49,757 bases of DNA from a virus (taxonomy: Duplodnaviria > Caudoviricetes): positions 1 to 49,757 of IMG/VR virus record IMGVR_UViG_3300022879_000179; one strand, written 5' to 3'. The position numbers and the translations under genes were made by a program. A model generated the notes under the pieces. That model worked only from the letters and a program-made list of their open reading frames with translations. It was not told where the DNA came from and made no database searches. This document shows, in pieces, positions 14,117-25,981 of this stretch; position 1 is the stretch's first letter, and every line of letters begins with the position of its first letter.

Positions 14117-16240
14117 TTACCAGTTATCAGACTTTGTAGCATCACGAAGATAATATTTACCCCCATCAAGAATGCTCTTTAGTGCAGCCTGTATTGGGTA
14201 ACTATAATCAGTAATATCTAACAACCCAACCTTGTTTTTTAATTTTTCTAAATTGATAATATCGCCGAAATTGCTTTCATCAATTTGCGCATAAGGCCCG
14301 TTAACTGAATCACTGCCTGCGCGCTCTAGTATCTCAGCAATCCTAATAATTCCATTTTTTTTATTTATTAAACTATCTATAAATTGAGACGCCAAATCTT
14401 TAGATGATCTCTTTAACTCCATAAATATATGAGATTCAAGATGGCTTTTAATGAATCTTTTTGTTTTAAGTGCGTCAAGAGCATTATGTTGATATGTTAT
14501 TTCTAATTTATCAAGTAACTCTTGCGTGACCCATGGGTTAATTTCATCAGTACCATTAAGTTGACGTCTAACTTTGTATAATACATCAGCTCCCAGAGGG
14601 GTGTTTTCTTTTCTAGATATTATGCTTTTGATTAGTTCGTTTTTATTGGTGCTTTCAGAAATGAATTTATTTGTCAGCCAATTCATTTTTCGGTATAAAT
14701 CTGAAGATAGAATTCCGTAATTAGATTCCTGTGATATGATAAGTTTCTCTGAGAATAGGAAGCTATCATATATACTTTTCAAAATATCAAAAGCATCATC
14801 ATCTATAATGCTGGAATAGTTAGTCATCATTTCAAAAAAGCGATCTTCAGCGTTACTTGATTCAACGTCAATTAAGAATTCAGACCTAGATATTTCACCT
14901 CGAATAAATTTAATTATGTCCTGATCTGATAAATATCCAATAGGAGTTTCATAATGAAATGCTACATGTAAGCGTTGAGGTGCAGACACTCTTCCTGCAT
15001 AGTCAGGGTTTGTAACCCCATAATGCGAGTAGCCTCCAAAGGCAAGCAAAGGGAATACTTCACCTAAAAGATTAATCATTAACTTCCGGTCTTTATCATT
15101 GAAAATTTGAAGTTGATGATTTCTTTCATTCTCGAATGTTTTGACTATTTCTTCCGGCTTTTCTAACAAAAGTCCATCATTGGTAAATCTCTTTCCAATA
15201 TATGCTTCAGGATTGTTTTTTATGTGTTCATATAGGCTGTTTGATTTTATTGCTATTAATGATAAAGCAAACAGATCAGAAAAACATACCTGACCTTCTA
15301 CTTGTTCTAAAATAAATCTCAAATGGTTAAAAAGTTTTTTTATTTCCCTTGGGTTCTTAATTAAGTGTTTGAAGTAATTGTGAAATATCCAGCTTAAGCG
15401 TTCTTGATCATTTTCAAAATTTTCTGTGAGATTTTTTTCGCTAAGGTTAGAGAATTCAATTTCTGCAAGCTCGGTTATACTACTCTCTGAAATAACTGGG
15501 AGTGGTACCCGTAATTGAACAATTTTATTGATATAATGTGCGGAGTTTTCTATGCCATTTTTTTTAAGTACTTCAGTTAGATAATTCGGATCAAATGCAA
15601 GCAGGAATGAAGTGCCAGGGAAGTCCGCTACTGCTTTAACCAATCTTAACACCTGAAATGTCTCAGTCGGTGTTAATCTATCAATGTCATCGATAATTAT
15701 AATGATTGGATAAGGAAGTTTTTGTATTTCTTTAGATACTTTCTTTTTTTTACCTAAAAGATCTAACTCCTTCAAGTCTTCGGTTTTTTTTGTAGCGCTT
15801 GATAATTTTGAAAATACTTTATCTAGTATAGATGCCCACGGTTCAGTTCCAGGGACAAGTTTTGCAATATTAAATAAACTTGCATATTTTACCAACTCTT
15901 TCGAGACTTTAAGTGCTAAGGATGTTTTATCCTTAAGGTTTAACTGTGCTGAGAAACTGACCAGAAAATCTTGTATTAAAGATTCGGGATTGCCAGCTAA
16001 CCAAGGGTTATATTCAATGATTGCGGGGTAAGTCTCCTTTTCCTGTAATGCACCTTTAATTAAATTAATTACTGATGTTTTGCCATTTCCCCATTCTCCC
16101 TCTAATGAGACAGTAAGACATTCATCTTCACAATTGAGTAGAAGTACATTTGCTAGTGCGTTGGCAAAACTGAGTCTATTTAGAAGGTCGGGATCATCAA
16201 TTCCGCCATAAATGGGGTTATCGTTATGATATTTGCTCAT
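14117..16240 (-). CDS. KAP-family P-loop NTPase
   Basis: DLLNR, Walker A GEWGNGKTS, YNPW, Walker B IIIIDDIDRL, YINKIVQ, NPREIK; AT-rich; start taken at MSKYH. Confidence 0.88.
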   Translation of the reverse strand: MSKYHNDNPIYGGIDDPDLLNRLSFANALANVLLLNCEDECLTVSLEGEWGNGKTSVINLIKGALQEKETYPAIIEYNPWLAGNPESLIQDFLVSFSAQLNLKDKTSLALKVSKELVKYASLFNIAKLVPGTEPWASILDKVFSKLSSATKKTEDLKELDLLGKKKKVSKEIQKLPYPIIIIIDDIDRLTPTETFQVLRLVKAVADFPGTSFLLAFDPNYLTEVLKKNGIENSAHYINKIVQLRVPLPVISESSITELAEIEFSNLSEKNLTENFENDQERLSWIFHNYFKHLIKNPREIKKLFNHLRFILEQVEGQVCFSDLFALSLIAIKSNSLYEHIKNNPEAYIGKRFTNDGLLLEKPEEIVKTFENERNHQLQIFNDKDRKLMINLLGEVFPLLAFGGYSHYGVTNPDYAGRVSAPQRLHVAFHYETPIGYLSDQDIIKFIRGEISRSEFLIDVESSNAEDRFFEMMTNYSSIIDDDAFDILKSIYDSFLFSEKLIISQESNYGILSSDLYRKMNWLTNKFISESTNKNELIKSIISRKENTPLGADVLYKVRRQLNGTDEINPWVTQELLDKLEITYQHNALDALKTKRFIKSHLESHIFMELKRSSKDLASQFIDSLINKKNGIIRIAEILERAGSDSVNGPYAQIDESNFGDIINLEKLKNKVGLLDITDYSYPIQAALKSILDGGKYYLRDATKSDNW

Positions 16241-16420
16241 ATTTGTCTCTTCGAACAAGAATTTAAAGTTGAATTTTTGTGATAATTGATAAATCAAATG
16301 GTAATTTAAGTCAAGAGAAATTCAAATCAGGAAGTATTTCAGACGTCTGGTTCATGCGCATGATGAAAAAACGTTCCTAAAGCAAACATCTCATTGTTTG
16401 CTGTTACCAAACCCAGAAGA

Positions 16421-16443
16421 TAAAAAGCCCCAAAAGGGGCTTG
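16421..16443 (-). terminator. Intrinsic terminator closing the membrane-protein/peptide operon
   Basis: Minus strand aagcccc-tttt-ggggctt-tttatc right after the peptide-2 stop. Confidence 0.75.
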
Positions 16444-16447
16444 GCAG

Positions 16448-16594
16448 TTATGGCTTCTTAGGTGGTGGCGCTGGTTGCGTAACTTGCTTAGGTGGCTTGT
16501 AACCTTCGTTAAGAGGCTGAGATTTAGGTTGATAACCGTAGTCATTTTCTTTCGGACGGTAACCTTCATTTTTGAATTTTTCGTTATTTGTCAT
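16448..16594 (-). CDS. 48-aa GYxP-repeat peptide 2 (not in ORF track)
   Basis: MTNNEKFKNEGYRPKENDYGYQPKSQPLNEGYKPPKQVTQPAPPPKKP; AAGGA RBS; paralogous to peptide 1. Confidence 0.8.
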   Translation of the reverse strand: MTNNEKFKNEGYRPKENDYGYQPKSQPLNEGYKPPKQVTQPAPPPKKP

Positions 16595-16620
16595 GTGATT
16601 TCCTTTTTAAAAATGATAGT

Positions 16621-16761
16621 TCAAGGTTTCTTCGGCGGGGGTGCTGGTTGTGATGTCTGCTTAAGCGGTTTATATCCACTATTTACATCTTGTTTTGGTT
16701 GGTAGCCTTTATTGTTGGGCTGATAACCATCTTGAGCTATAGGTTTCTTAGTTTCACTCAT
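16621..16761 (-). CDS. 46-aa GYxP-repeat peptide 1
   Basis: MSETKKPIAQDGYQPNNKGYQPKQDVNSGYKPLKQTSQPAPPPKKP; AAGGAG RBS; start overlaps the upstream stop. Confidence 0.8.
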   Translation of the reverse strand: MSETKKPIAQDGYQPNNKGYQPKQDVNSGYKPLKQTSQPAPPPKKP

Positions 16762-17383
16762 TATTATCTCCTTCTTGACTATTTTCACTAGGGTTAGTGA
16801 ATCTGAAAAATTCAATGTGCTCAATATCTTTTGAAAGAATCAAAATGCCAAGGGTATCTGTTCTTGCCCTTTCAAACCCCCCATCTGCGTTGATCACCCA
16901 ATTTTCTTCAAGGTATAGCTGCTCTGGATTAGGAGAGCTTGATGAAAATGAGTCAGCAGAATATTTGCCAGCTATTTTATTTCCATCTTTAAGAGTAACT
17001 ATAACCCATGATGACATTCTTAGACCGAAATAATAATCCCAGGCCCGTCCTGTAGGATGTGGAAGCAAATTACATAGCCACTTCCACGATCGCATCCATA
17101 CAAATAATAAAGTCAAGATGATAGGGCTAACAAAGAGAACACACAAATAGAAAAGCATGTAAGAGATTAAATGAGTGGCACCATATTGCGATTTTTCAAA
17201 TAAATATATAGGTATTAGCCATATAGCATAATTGATGCAACTATATGTTACAACCTCAATAATTGTCTTAGACGTATCAAGTTGAACATTGGGATGTAGT
17301 ACACTGTACAGCTTCATACTTAGAAAACCCGGAATAACGAAGGCTATGAAAATGACCAATTTATTTGTATCCCAAATATCCAT
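16754..17383 (-). CDS. Membrane protein with about 3 TM helices and a soluble beta domain (DUF6338-like)
   Basis: FVIPGF, three hydrophobic segments, PHPTGRAWDYYF, WVIVTLKDGNKIAGKY, QLYLEE, DIEHIEF. Confidence 0.75.
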   Translation of the reverse strand: MDIWDTNKLVIFIAFVIPGFLSMKLYSVLHPNVQLDTSKTIIEVVTYSCINYAIWLIPIYLFEKSQYGATHLISYMLFYLCVLFVSPIILTLLFVWMRSWKWLCNLLPHPTGRAWDYYFGLRMSSWVIVTLKDGNKIAGKYSADSFSSSSPNPEQLYLEENWVINADGGFERARTDTLGILILSKDIEHIEFFRFTNPSENSQEGDNNE

Positions 17384-17571: not shown

Positions 17572-17587
17572 CTGTTTATGCATACAG
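17572..17587 (+). promoter_or_regulatory. LexA box upstream of the dinI remnant
   Basis: CTGTTTATGCATACAG (CTG-N10-CAG). Confidence 0.7.
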
Positions 17588-17607: not shown

Positions 17608-17840
17608 ATGAAAGCTGAATTAACCATTGATCGCACTAAAGAACTTCCTAGGGCGCGGTTTCAGCACTGGAAAAAGAACTGTTAAATCGGCTCCAGAATC
17701 AGTTCGATGAGTGCTGTCTGGTAATAAGGCGTGCAGGCTCCGATGGGTTAAGAGTTTACGGTAGTGAAAAAGAAGCTTAGAAAAAGGTTGAGGATATCCT
17801 CCAGCAGATCTGGGAAAGCGCAGAGGACTGGTTTTATTGA
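17608..17840 (+). pseudogene. dinI: DinI-like pseudogene
   Basis: MKAELTIDRTKELP / frameshift / GAVSALEKELLNRLQNQF...EKEA*KKVEDILQQIWESAEDWFY. Confidence 0.8.
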
Positions 17841-17881
17841 TACAGCATGCAGAAATTTTCCAGTTTTGGAGGGGGAGATTG

Positions 17882-18207: not shown

Positions 18208-19149
18208 TTAAATATCTTCGATTAAATCTTCTGCCCCAGGTTCTTTCTTTTTTAAAGCATTCCTTATATTATCCATAATCATTGTTCTATTAATGTTTGG
18301 TAATCCCCTCGTTGCATTTTCTGTAAGTTCTATGTGAGGAACTCCATTTACTAAGTGATTTCTGAAAATACCCGGATAAAGATTTGATAGATTAGTTATT
18401 TGAGAAGCTAAAGTATTTTTTAACTCATTTAGATTATCAAAATCTGTTTGGAGCTTGCCTATTTCTTCCTCAAGCTTTAGAATGCTATGGCTTGCTTGCA
18501 TACGTTCATAATCAAGTTCTTTGATAGTGGAGTTTAAGTCTATATTTAATTCAGACAATTTTTTGCGAGCACTCTCACTTTGTTCTAATGAATCTTTTTC
18601 TGAGCGAAGTTGGGCTTTCAAGCTACTTTCTTCTGCTTTGCTATCATTTAATTTGACTTGCAATTCTTTGACTTCTATCTCTAAAGATAGCACTAACTCA
18701 TGCAGTCTTTTATTATCGGCTTTAATTAATGAGATGCTTTCTTCTATATACCGTTCTTCCTTTTTATCAGCAAGTTTTTTTCTTGCTTCGATCTCTGCAA
18801 TTGATTGCTGAAGTTCTGCTACTCTAATTTTAGATGATAAAGTTAACTCAATTGTTTCCGAGTTGGGTTTATCTTGAATTTTAGTAATTGCTTTATTTAT
18901 TTGCGGTAACAAAAAAGCTATCAATGCAGAGGTGCAAAGTGGTGCTGATAAATAATTCCAAACATCAAAATTACTATTTATAAACTTCAATCTTTCTTCA
19001 ATACTATTCTTGCTGAAAAATAGAATGGCAAGCATTTGCCAGTTAAATCCAATCCATGAAAAGACAAAGGCCCCAAGAAAAGGGCTCTTTACCCTTTCTA
19101 GCGAGGTTTGACGAAAGGAGGCAAAAATATCCCGTAGAAAATCTAACAT
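18208..19149 (-). CDS. Membrane-anchored coiled-coil accessory protein
   Basis: Two N-terminal hydrophobic segments then a long heptad-rich region; AT-rich; AAGGA RBS; hairpin at about 18132-18168 downstream. Confidence 0.75.
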   Translation of the reverse strand: MLDFLRDIFASFRQTSLERVKSPFLGAFVFSWIGFNWQMLAILFFSKNSIEERLKFINSNFDVWNYLSAPLCTSALIAFLLPQINKAITKIQDKPNSETIELTLSSKIRVAELQQSIAEIEARKKLADKKEERYIEESISLIKADNKRLHELVLSLEIEVKELQVKLNDSKAEESSLKAQLRSEKDSLEQSESARKKLSELNIDLNSTIKELDYERMQASHSILKLEEEIGKLQTDFDNLNELKNTLASQITNLSNLYPGIFRNHLVNGVPHIELTENATRGLPNINRTMIMDNIRNALKKKEPGAEDLIEDI

Positions 19150-23447: not shown

Positions 23448-23962
23448 AATTTAATCTTTTACCAATCGCGGTTGTGGTTATTGCTGGTCTGTCAGTCGCT
23501 CTCGTTAAGAGCTGCTCAGACACCAGTAGCCTTCAGAGCGATAACGACGTTCTGCGGAGTGACAACTCTTTGCAGGGGCAGGTGATCGCTACCCAAGCCT
23601 TCAACTTCAATCGATTCAATCAGGTTTCGGAGCATGCCAATAGGCTTAACTCCCTTATCGACACCAGAACCGAAGAAACCGTAATCGAATACCGGGAGAT
23701 TCTCCGCCGTGAAAAAACCTGTGATCTTCCTGTTCCTGCTGACATTGCTGGTGGGCTGCTCGAATACGCGTACCGTTTACGTTCCAGCGCAATGCACGCC
23801 GATACCCACGGATCTGACGCAGCCGATGATGGTACCGCTGCCTCCAGCTCAATAACATACTGCCAGGCAGTGCTCTGGATTAAGCCTCTGCTGGCCGTGA
23901 TTGAGAAGGGGAACAATAATCTGGCTGGTATAAGACAGATAGAGCTGGAAAGGAAAAACTAG
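23444..23962 (+). CDS. Rz-like i-spanin with extended C-terminus
   Basis: N-terminal TM and periplasmic helices; GTG overlapping the endolysin stop. Confidence 0.75.
   Translation: MKFNLLPIAVVVIAGLSVALVKSCSDTSSLQSDNDVLRSDNSLQGQVIATQAFNFNRFNQVSEHANRLNSLIDTRTEETVIEYREILRREKTCDLPVPADIAGGLLEYAYRLRSSAMHADTHGSDAADDGTAASSSITYCQAVLWIKPLLAVIEKGNNNLAGIRQIELERKN
23709..23855 (+). CDS. Embedded Rz1-like o-spanin lipoprotein (48 aa, not in ORF track)
   Basis: VKKPVIFLFLLTLLVGC/SNTRTVYVPAQCTPIPTDLTQPMMVPLPPAQ; lipobox LVGC; +1 frame in Rz. Confidence 0.7.
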   Translation: MKKPVIFLFLLTLLVGCSNTRTVYVPAQCTPIPTDLTQPMMVPLPPAQ

Positions 23963-24397
23963 GGATGGCTCGTCCTTGAGCACACGGGTATTTCTGAACG
24001 ACGGCTTTACCTGACATAGCAAAGCACCTTTAAATTCTAGAAAAGACTCAATATTTAACAAGCGAACCGCATCAATCCCAAAAAAAAGCCCCCACAAGGA
24101 GGGCTAGGGGAGTCTCAGTTTCACATGCTCTTCTTATGGATGTTTCCCTGGAGTTGGCATTCTCCTCATCAGAGTCATGAATAGCCTGGCCGCAACCAAG
24201 AGATCAACAAGCGCAAGCGGTTGTAATAGGAATAGCCTCAGGCTGTTGGTGAAAATTATTTTCTCGAATAGTAGATGACTATTGGTATATCCCCATAAAA
24301 AATAACCAAATATTTGACGCGGTTAATTGAGTTTTCGAACTGATGATTTACTGCGTTGAGCTATACTCTTGGTTGGGTAAAAGAATGGGAGCGTGTT

Positions 24398-24595
24398 ATG
24401 AATATTCATCTACGTAGTACCAAAGCAGGTAAAGTCATGACTCAGGAGGAATGGCTACACTCGTTAAATGAATGGGAAGATGAAGGAGGCGCTCCTGGTC
24501 ATGCTGATGAATTCATAGAAGTTTATAAGAATGATGAAGAAAATGAGGAAACTGTTCCACTTTCTGGTGGTAAAGCTCGGCATATGAAGTCTTAA
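24398..24595 (+). CDS. Small acidic protein
   Basis: 65 aa with EWEDEGGA; GGAG RBS. Confidence 0.5.
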   Translation: MNIHLRSTKAGKVMTQEEWLHSLNEWEDEGGAPGHADEFIEVYKNDEENEETVPLSGGKARHMKS

Positions 24596-24865
24596 GAAAA
24601 AACATAACTATGGTGGTTCTTTCTTAGGACCAATTGAATGCTGTTTAGTTTAGGAGATGCAAAATTTTAGGGTGCGGCCAATATTTTTCCTCCCTGAGTG
24701 GATGCTCTATTTGTAATTTATTTGTAAGTATATCATTTAATATGCCCGGTATTTAATGACATGGGGTCGAGATATTTTTAGTAACATCAAATGTGTGATT
24801 TATTTTCTATATTGCTACTATAATAAACATACAGCAATTTGCTGTCATTATCACTGGAGTTACCC

Positions 24866-24991
24866 ATGAAAGCTAAACATATGAACATCTCTAATGAGCG
24901 GTCCCAGGACAGGAATAATGGGAAAGAAAAAGGGAAAGATCGAAACAATGATGAACAGGATAAAAAATCGGCCAAAAGAGATCAGAAATAA
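24866..24991 (+). CDS. 41-aa highly charged peptide (not in ORF track)
   Basis: MKAKHMNISNERSQDRNNGKEKGKDRNNDEQDKKSAKRDQK; GGAG RBS. Confidence 0.5.
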   Translation: MKAKHMNISNERSQDRNNGKEKGKDRNNDEQDKKSAKRDQK

Positions 24992-25019
24992 AAAGTACAT
25001 GAATTATTAAGGAGTATAT

Positions 25020-25157
25020 ATGTCCGGACGTCCTGATTTTGATGATCCTGCCCCTGATTTAGAACCTTCCCCTCAAGAGGAACCGCTTGACCTTCCTGGA
25101 GAGGGACAACCATCAAGTCCACTTGAACCCGATGATAAAAGAGATTTACAGAATTAG
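25020..25157 (+). CDS. 45-aa Pro/Asp/Glu-rich peptide (not in ORF track)
   Basis: MSGRPDFDDPAPDLEPSPQEEPLDLPGEGQPSSPLEPDDKRDLQN; AAGGAG RBS; hairpin aaaccgcc-taag-ggcggttt follows. Confidence 0.55.
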   Translation: MSGRPDFDDPAPDLEPSPQEEPLDLPGEGQPSSPLEPDDKRDLQN

Positions 25158-25285
25158 CATACAATAATTAAACCGCCTAAGGGCGGTTTAATATGATGAT
25201 TATTTATTGGTCATCTCAGCGCCTAGTTGAATGAATAAATACGTATTTTAAGAAGGGTTTTGACGTTTGGGTTGAATGCTTATTA

Positions 25286-25534
25286 TTATCTACGCCCCAA
25301 TAAAAAACCTAATGCAAAAGCTACACTGGTTAATATGGCAATGCATGTTCGAGGGTTTGATTTTATTTTTGATTTTATATCGTCAGAGTGGCCGCGTATG
25401 GCATCATTGGTTTGTGCTGCGTATTTTTTTGCGGTTTCTATTACAGGATGTTCTGATGGATTAATTGCTCCCCCAAAACTGCCTTCCATATCACCAAGTT
25501 TCTCTTGGTTTTTATCTGCGGATTTAGTGAACAT
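25286..25534 (-). CDS. ElaB/YqjD (DUF883)-like tail-anchored stress protein
   Basis: C-terminal IKSNPRTCIAILTSVAFALGFLLGRR; AGGAG RBS. Confidence 0.7.
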   Translation of the reverse strand: MFTKSADKNQEKLGDMEGSFGGAINPSEHPVIETAKKYAAQTNDAIRGHSDDIKSKIKSNPRTCIAILTSVAFALGFLLGRR

Positions 25535-25807
25535 ATATACTCCTGGGATTGTGTGGTGTATTAATCATAGCAGAAAATAAATATTTTACTGTAAAGGTGT
25601 GCAAGTAACACCTTTATAGACTTTACCATGTCTTAAATAGTGTTTTTTTAGTTCCTTTTGTTATATGATATTTTAGTGGGTATATACATATAGGGGAGTG
25701 GCGCATATTTGCCATAATGTCATGAATCATCTATACATAAGTATCTGATTCGCTCATTAACGATTTGTGTTTGATTGAGTGTTAATGAGTTATTTATAGG
25801 AGGTAAA

Positions 25808-25981
25808 ATGAATTCTGATAACATCAAGAATGAAATCGAAAAAGAGATTTCGTCTTTCATCTCAAAAAAAATGGTTGAGTTGAGAAAAAAAACAGGGAAG
25901 GAAGTCTCTGATGTTGAGTTTATTCCTATAGAAACTATGTCTGGCCTCCAGGGTTATAGTATCAAAATCAAGCTTATTTAA
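25808..25981 (+). CDS. GnsA/GnsB-family protein
   Basis: EKEISSFISKKMVELRKKTGKEVSDVEF..ETMSGLQGYSIKIKLI. Confidence 0.8.
   Translation: MNSDNIKNEIEKEISSFISKKMVELRKKTGKEVSDVEFIPIETMSGLQGYSIKIKLI

Follow-up and report, generated by a model that had tools for sequence, protein, structure and literature searches.

Membrane proteins of the DUF6338 family, with a predicted Sm-type domain, pair with GYxP-repeat peptides whose motif recurs on unrelated phage proteins

We describe a mobile gene pair in which a membrane protein of the family DUF6338 is followed by one or more micropeptides carrying GYxP motifs and a proline-rich tail. The pair is real, widespread and unexplained in print, and the last unit of its peptides is found on unrelated phage proteins, an observation that is new here. 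Together with the genomic context of the pair and the predicted fold of DUF6338, these observations would fit a two-part cassette in which peptide ligands hold back an anti-phage membrane effector and phages counter it with mimics of those ligands. We give this reading a probability of roughly one in three.

The window, that is the whole stretch of DNA analysed here (49,757 nucleotides, positions 1 to 49,757 of IMG/VR record IMGVR_UViG_3300022879_000179), is a provirus record with a lambdoid gene order. Antisense to the replication and late genes of this prophage, a unit of three genes on the minus strand occupies a slot of low GC content (0.36-0.40, compared to 0.50 for the window). It consists of the gene for the 209-residue DUF6338 protein (16754..17383), a 46-residue peptide 1 (16621..16761) and its 48-residue paralogue, peptide 2 (16448..16594). 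The layout is real, and both peptides read letter for letter as given in the original prediction. Each has its own ribosome-binding site: the ATG of peptide 1 overlaps the DUF6338 stop (ATGAGTGA) downstream of AAGGAG, and peptide 2, after a 26-nt gap, is preceded by AAGGA. The predicted coupling of peptide 1 to the membrane gene is thereby borne out, and the two form a translationally coupled two-gene operon as in type II toxin-antitoxin systems. The peptides contain six GYxP motifs, three each, and peptide 1 ends in PPPKKP. Their last nine residues are identical with six of the nine codons differing synonymously, as had been noticed before. Both are present as predicted proteins in public collections.

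An intrinsic terminator had been proposed to close the unit. Taken alone, the hairpin and T-run at 16425..16442 (minus strand) is not above chance (1 found for 1.5 expected, z -1.63); the proposal stands by recurrence, with a hairpin after the last peptide in 25 of 123 relatives versus 2 of 113 control spots. No promoter stands out for the unit (9 candidates found for 8.9 expected), and there is no Rfam match. A LexA-box-like site (17572-17587, plus strand) precedes a dinI-like gene (17609-17841, plus strand) with a frameshift and a stop codon inside it. By position the box belongs to this divergent remnant, whose DinI-like label underlies the match, and LexA-like boxes were found upstream of the cassette at only 4 of 131 loci.

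The slot also holds a full-length PifA-like KAP NTPase gene on the minus strand (14117..16297; PADLOC PifA, E 1.1e-68; Pfam KAP_NTPase), with a GC content of 0.33 compared to 0.50 for the window. It is likely a separate defence gene that shares the accessory slot, and thus context and not part of the module. Further along, a low-GC gene (18208-19149, minus strand) encodes a 313-residue protein with a hydrophobic N-terminus and a coiled coil. It is an accessory candidate and matches PHROGs 13369, 35327 and 4780, all of unknown function. Contigs of four RNA runs span the entire prophage stretch at low depth and are therefore uninformative on expression of the cassette. They are far deeper (79-256) at 23584-25871 than over most of the prophage; that region contains several small ORFs, and contig depth is a poor measure of expression.

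The membrane protein matches Pfam PF19865 (DUF6338) over model positions 5-201 of 205 (121.8 bits against a cut-off of 26.5, E 3.7e-35); the family counts 2,555 clusters at the 50% identity level (E up to 0.001). Searches of solved structures gave no sequence match, and atlas searches returned unnamed clusters only. In the AlphaFold2 model (pLDDT 82.8), three long helices (residues 2-29, 37-64 and 72-98) are followed by a beta domain, in agreement with the about three transmembrane helices and C-terminal beta domain first proposed. Hydropathy agrees less well, with two strong peaks and a polar middle helix, in which residues Y47, S48, N51 and Y52 are conserved.

Based on this model, residues of about 108-195 are predicted to form an Sm/LSm/Hfq-type domain, as suspected from the sequence. 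Nearly all top rows of the fold searches are Sm, LSm or Hfq chains, and the predicted domain has the helix and five-stranded bent sheet of that fold. The best match is archaeal SmAP1 (Z 7.9, rmsd 2.8 over 76 residues), a middling score just under the tool's caution level of 8, albeit consistent across rows. A co-fold of four DUF6338 copies with peptide 1 scored 0.28 against a mark of 0.32, which counts neither for nor against binding.

Our description of the family draws on every one of the 57 viral loci and on the best 80 of the 117 from genomes; three of them lack downstream DNA, leaving 134. Collecting homologues had been suggested as a check of the original prediction, and 131 of the 134 loci have a GYxP-repeat peptide behind DUF6338 (130 as separate genes, 1 as a fusion). 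Control positions gave such a peptide at 4/123 upstream, 1/117 far downstream and 2/133 antisense (slightly different rule). Among the 130 loci with separate genes, 112 have one peptide gene, 9 have two, 6 have three and 3 have four. The fused case is locus L030, to which P0147 can be added among proteins. The protein P0089 is a natural fusion.

Three loci are peptide-free by our rule. In L007 an insertion sequence lies inside the peptide, and L136 is distant. In the third, L059, all three motifs read SYxP for GYxP and the partner DUF6338 carries F146C at an otherwise invariant site, possibly a compensatory pair.

The association was also found in reverse. For 84 double-motif metagenome matches, DUF6338 is upstream in 61 but not in 17, and in 6 the flank is too short. 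This search exposed a peptide subtype that ends in PPxGGSG instead of PPKKP. Subfamilies farther out in DUF6338 have proline-rich peptides of their own, with different patterns. Two outlying DUF6338 genes, one archaeal (L153) and one actinobacterial (L165), have no GYxP peptide behind them, and the archaeal one is followed by a different tandem-repeat ORF. Conversely, one bacterial-looking contig has a three-motif peptide gene without DUF6338 upstream (L267:1391-1537).

Translation has been shown for a relative of this locus: three peptides of a Pseudomonas stutzeri DUF6338 operon were found by mass spectrometry with 98-100% coverage (PMC10433244). The available part of that paper calls these peptides not conserved and gives no function. 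Contrary to the first of these statements, the peptides behind DUF6338 are conserved at the family level. Accordingly, the view that no such system had been described fails for the layout, which is in print once, and holds for its function as far as that part of PMC10433244 goes.

Cassette peptides mostly carry two or more motifs (139 of 160; 21 have one). Nearly all peptides of the first subtype (136 of 137 distinct sequences) have PP within the last eight residues, which needs to be read with care since our selection rule favoured proline tails. Along with the many phage carriers of the motif that abut the next gene (see below), this would suit a motif acting in cis on the ribosome, where EF-P-dependent pausing of the nascent chain at PP tunes translation of neighbouring genes. 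We consider such a role very unlikely: the distance from motif to end spans 16 to 24 residues, PPP occurs in only 88 of the 137, the motif is internal to the protein in one subtype, and the peptides come last in the operon, ahead of the terminator. The PPP count and the subtype without the PPKKP end also weaken the earlier idea that peptide supply depends on EF-P, which is not general. On a tree of 111 rows the tail type switches 5 times, a pattern that speaks to co-inheritance only.

The original prediction saw the peptides as possible antitoxins. In a strict type II pair, loss of the small partner is not tolerated, and here an intact DUF6338 is found beside a broken peptide at three loci, through an insertion sequence (L007), a stop codon (L114) and a frameshift that may be an assembly error (L031). 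This argues against a strict lethal toxin-antitoxin pair. DUF6338 is itself broken at 2 loci, in searches that favoured intact DUF6338.

The DUF6338 family sits in prophages, integrons and defence islands. Its distribution is patchy (7/301, 5/201 and 3/201 sampled genomes of three groups). At two loci (L037 and L080) the entire pair lies between recombination-site-like sequences, read by eye, that adjoin an integron-type integrase. Automatic attC detection (6/133 versus 0/120, and 2/78 in another run) is unreliable, and we thus limit the integron claim to these two loci.

Under a strict rule (E no higher than 1e-30, 70% or more of the profile covered, three nearest ORFs), near-full-length defence genes adjoin 13 of 80 loci compared to 0 of 40 control points (p 0.004), with the reservations that the rule was fixed after seeing the data and that the control points are core genome, unlike other mobile cargo. 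These genes include Gabija, AbiEii, restriction-modification, IetAS, a CBASS cyclase, a retron, SIR2 and others. The raw count is not significant (22/80 versus 7/40, p 0.16). With the low-GC slot and the PifA-like neighbour in the window, these neighbours uphold the proposed accessory-slot context. Genes for ThsB-like TIR proteins, caspases or both turn up repeatedly next to the cassette (L003, L004, L031, L056, L059 and L064). Two plasmids (L166 and L167) have a motif peptide behind DUF6338. One of them has a ThiF/JAB operon directly ahead of the DUF6338 gene, the other a nucleotidyltransferase-SLATT pair.

DefensePredictor scores an E. coli relative from a 61%-identical cluster, WP_021544535.1, as defensive (log-odds 4.92; PMC13092281). 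As this tool draws on genomic context, the score is not independent evidence, and DUF6338 is absent from its validated domains in the part of PMC13092281 available. The E. coli gene is followed by its own peptide gene, WP_021544534.1. Neither component of the cassette matches PADLOC 2.0, and NCBIfam 20 gave one weak unrelated match only (E 0.02).

Among the 213 neighbours nearest to the 80 genome loci, 86 of which were run through PADLOC, we found no recurring partner gene beyond prophage genes and, as to features of RiPP clusters, no recurring modifying enzyme, protease or transporter. The latter bears on the idea that the operon makes precursors from which a modified or exported peptide arises, with DUF6338 as transporter, receptor or immunity protein. 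Multi-copy repeat peptides might resemble precursor arrays, and DUF6338 also occurs in biosynthetic clusters according to PMC10433244. Nonetheless sequencing covered the P. stutzeri peptides essentially from end to end, and the grafting of the motif onto phage proteins would be left unexplained. We hold a precursor role to be hardly credible.

The motif is indeed not confined to the cassette. A first scan of viral contigs with the tail pattern gave 17 loci, 7 of them without DUF6338. The follow-up patterns left the glycine before YQP free. With the PP-basic tail we obtained 147 loci, of which 47 are out of frame, 19 have DUF6338 and 81 do not; glycine is present in 69 of the 81. Flanks are of 300 bases or less at 28 of the 147, a few of which are probably DUF6338-linked. 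For the PPxGGSG tail there were 56 loci (44 in frame, 36 with glycine) and for the acidic tail 16 (10 in frame, all 10 with glycine), none with DUF6338. Overall, glycine precedes YQP in 115 of 135 in-frame DUF6338-free matches, compared to a background of 17 of 210. A plain double-GYQP pattern for viruses was dropped, since it also matches low-complexity proteins (13 of 24 without DUF6338).

With the motif masked, the 100 glycine-bearing ORFs from loci above 1 kb group into 56 clusters of carriers that are unrelated to one another. By inspection these comprise cysteine-pair knuckles, single-helix membrane proteins and longer proteins. What is copied is the last unit of the cassette peptides (GYQP, spacer and PP-tail; 17-21 residues), in all three tail types. 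The motif is single in 52 of 56 carriers, every Gly and Pro codon is in use, and 46 of 56 carriers lie on the majority strand. At 13 of 54 loci of the first set a second long ORF runs across the motif, so that some frames may be constrained. Two carriers (L440 and L447) also bear the P. stutzeri-type pattern, seen in 0 of 1,178 control ORFs and with a shuffle mean of 0.036. Seven cultured Salmonella phage records have related DNA; in S107, the only one translated, the full motif is encoded by an unannotated gene of 39 codons that follows the one for the large terminase.

Head, packaging or lysis genes (terminase, portal, head, connector, lysis) neighbour the motif at 17 of 27 sampled loci, based on 73 of 132 neighbours scanned. 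DUF6338 exceeds its cut-off in one of 41 motif-bearing phage records and is missing from the other 40, a count that covers the phage records alone, most of them fragments (11 at least 90% complete). Of 301 bacterial genomes, only 2 contain the motif, each in a cassette peptide beside DUF6338.

Whatever protein it sits on, a motif of use to phages must have something in the cell to act upon. One candidate is a third, host-encoded target, possibly of Sm fold, that phages exploit in head assembly and that the cassette would flood, or for which it would offer DUF6338 as a membrane decoy. In the scan with the PP-basic tail, phage genes with the motif alone are more numerous than those linked to DUF6338 (81 versus 19) and cluster in late modules, and T4 neck assembly uses host Hfq (PMC12929587). 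Against this, phages hold all three tail types as well as the motif of a second subfamily, following the diversity of DUF6338, and the 301 genomes hold no motif-bearing gene outside the cassette. Such a host target is in our judgement unlikely. As every one of the three tail types of the cassette recurs among the phage copies, DUF6338 is the simplest target. A host target and roles in ribosome pausing or as peptide precursors are less likely.

If DUF6338 is the target, the cassette of restrained effector and phage mimics may work as follows. DUF6338 would form a membrane ring of Sm-type domains, and each GYxP-plus-tail unit would dock on the Sm domain of one subunit, the repeats of the cassette peptides adding avidity. 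The peptides would hold the ring shut until a late phage event removes or displaces them, when the polar second helix may line a pore and the cell be depolarised. Late-expressed phage copies of the motif would keep the ring shut. On this proposal the peptides would raise the threshold for opening rather than being needed for survival. Taken as a whole, the original prediction of a gated membrane effector is partly supported.

The sign of the interaction might be the opposite, with multivalent peptides that staple or cluster DUF6338 into an active form on infection and single-motif phage copies that compete as antagonists. Phages copy one motif and not the whole repeat peptide, for which an antagonist fits equally well, and the tolerated loss of the peptide beside an intact DUF6338, like the prevalence of two or more motifs in cassette peptides, is in keeping with activators. 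Nevertheless 21 of the 160 cassette peptides have a single motif, and the P. stutzeri peptides are abundant without infection (44-114 spectra; PMC10433244), so that activation would need a second trigger. We regard this reversal as improbable.

The proposal can also be put in another form: a widespread immune channel would have an Sm/Hfq ring as its scaffold and a short linear peptide code for its gating, and phages would have grafted this code as a portable anti-defence tag of 17-21 residues onto dozens of unrelated late proteins, some with tags for two receptor subfamilies. We place this form close to even odds, on the doubtful side. If the tags are what they seem, they would reveal an arms race at the level of motifs that escapes gene-family searches, in which counter-defence is carried by a linear motif that can be transplanted and not by any one gene family. 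The effector would likewise give a function to the large uncharacterised family DUF6338 and bring a membrane effector of Sm fold into bacterial immunity. Even should the defence reading fail, some binding target must stand behind a motif that the micropeptides of an operon share with 56 unrelated phage proteins. Reagents are at hand in the E. coli cassette (WP_021544535.1 and WP_021544534.1) and in the cultured phage S107 with its motif gene. Neither the GYxP family nor the phage motif is described in the literature searched, from which closed supplements and subscription papers were excluded; a published test of DUF6338, of which we found none, could be in such sources. DUF6338 is absent from the supplements of PMC13586616.

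The features of the cassette can finally be compared to known systems. Residues 108-195 of DUF6338 share the predicted fold of Hfq, Sm and LSm proteins; unlike these, DUF6338 is membrane-anchored, and identity is about 20%. In predicted topology it may resemble the channels of the MscS family, in which three transmembrane helices are followed by a ring-forming Sm-like domain. It differs from them in having neither a sequence match to MscS nor the C-terminal alpha/beta cage domain, and MscS is absent from the fold-search rows shown, a statement that covers those rows only. To our knowledge, MscS has no peptide partner.

ToxI, the antitoxin of the type III toxin-antitoxin system ToxIN, is built of repeats. 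ToxIN and the pseudo-ToxI of phage TE offer a likeness in abortive infection and in phage escape by antitoxin mimics (PMC3594212), with the difference that the antitoxin there is RNA, whereas here peptide motifs, for which all synonymous codons are used, go with a membrane protein. DarTG and the antitoxin mimic of phage ICP1 are alike in that a functional antitoxin is encoded by a phage against a mobile defence pair (bioRxiv 2023.12.14.571748). There, one phage protein acts against a DNA-modifying toxin; here, the candidate mimic is a short motif on dozens of unrelated carriers.

The closest likeness in layout is operon 9 of P. stutzeri (DUF6338, SEP1, SEP5, SEP2), where small, basic, proline-tailed peptides detected by mass spectrometry follow DUF6338 (PMC10433244); these SEP peptides are without GYxP and show the pattern of another subfamily. 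In the features tested, the cassette departs from catalogued defence systems, from RiPP clusters and from strict type II pairs. Should the restrained effector prove right, it would work like toxin-antitoxin abortive infection with antitoxin mimics made by phages.
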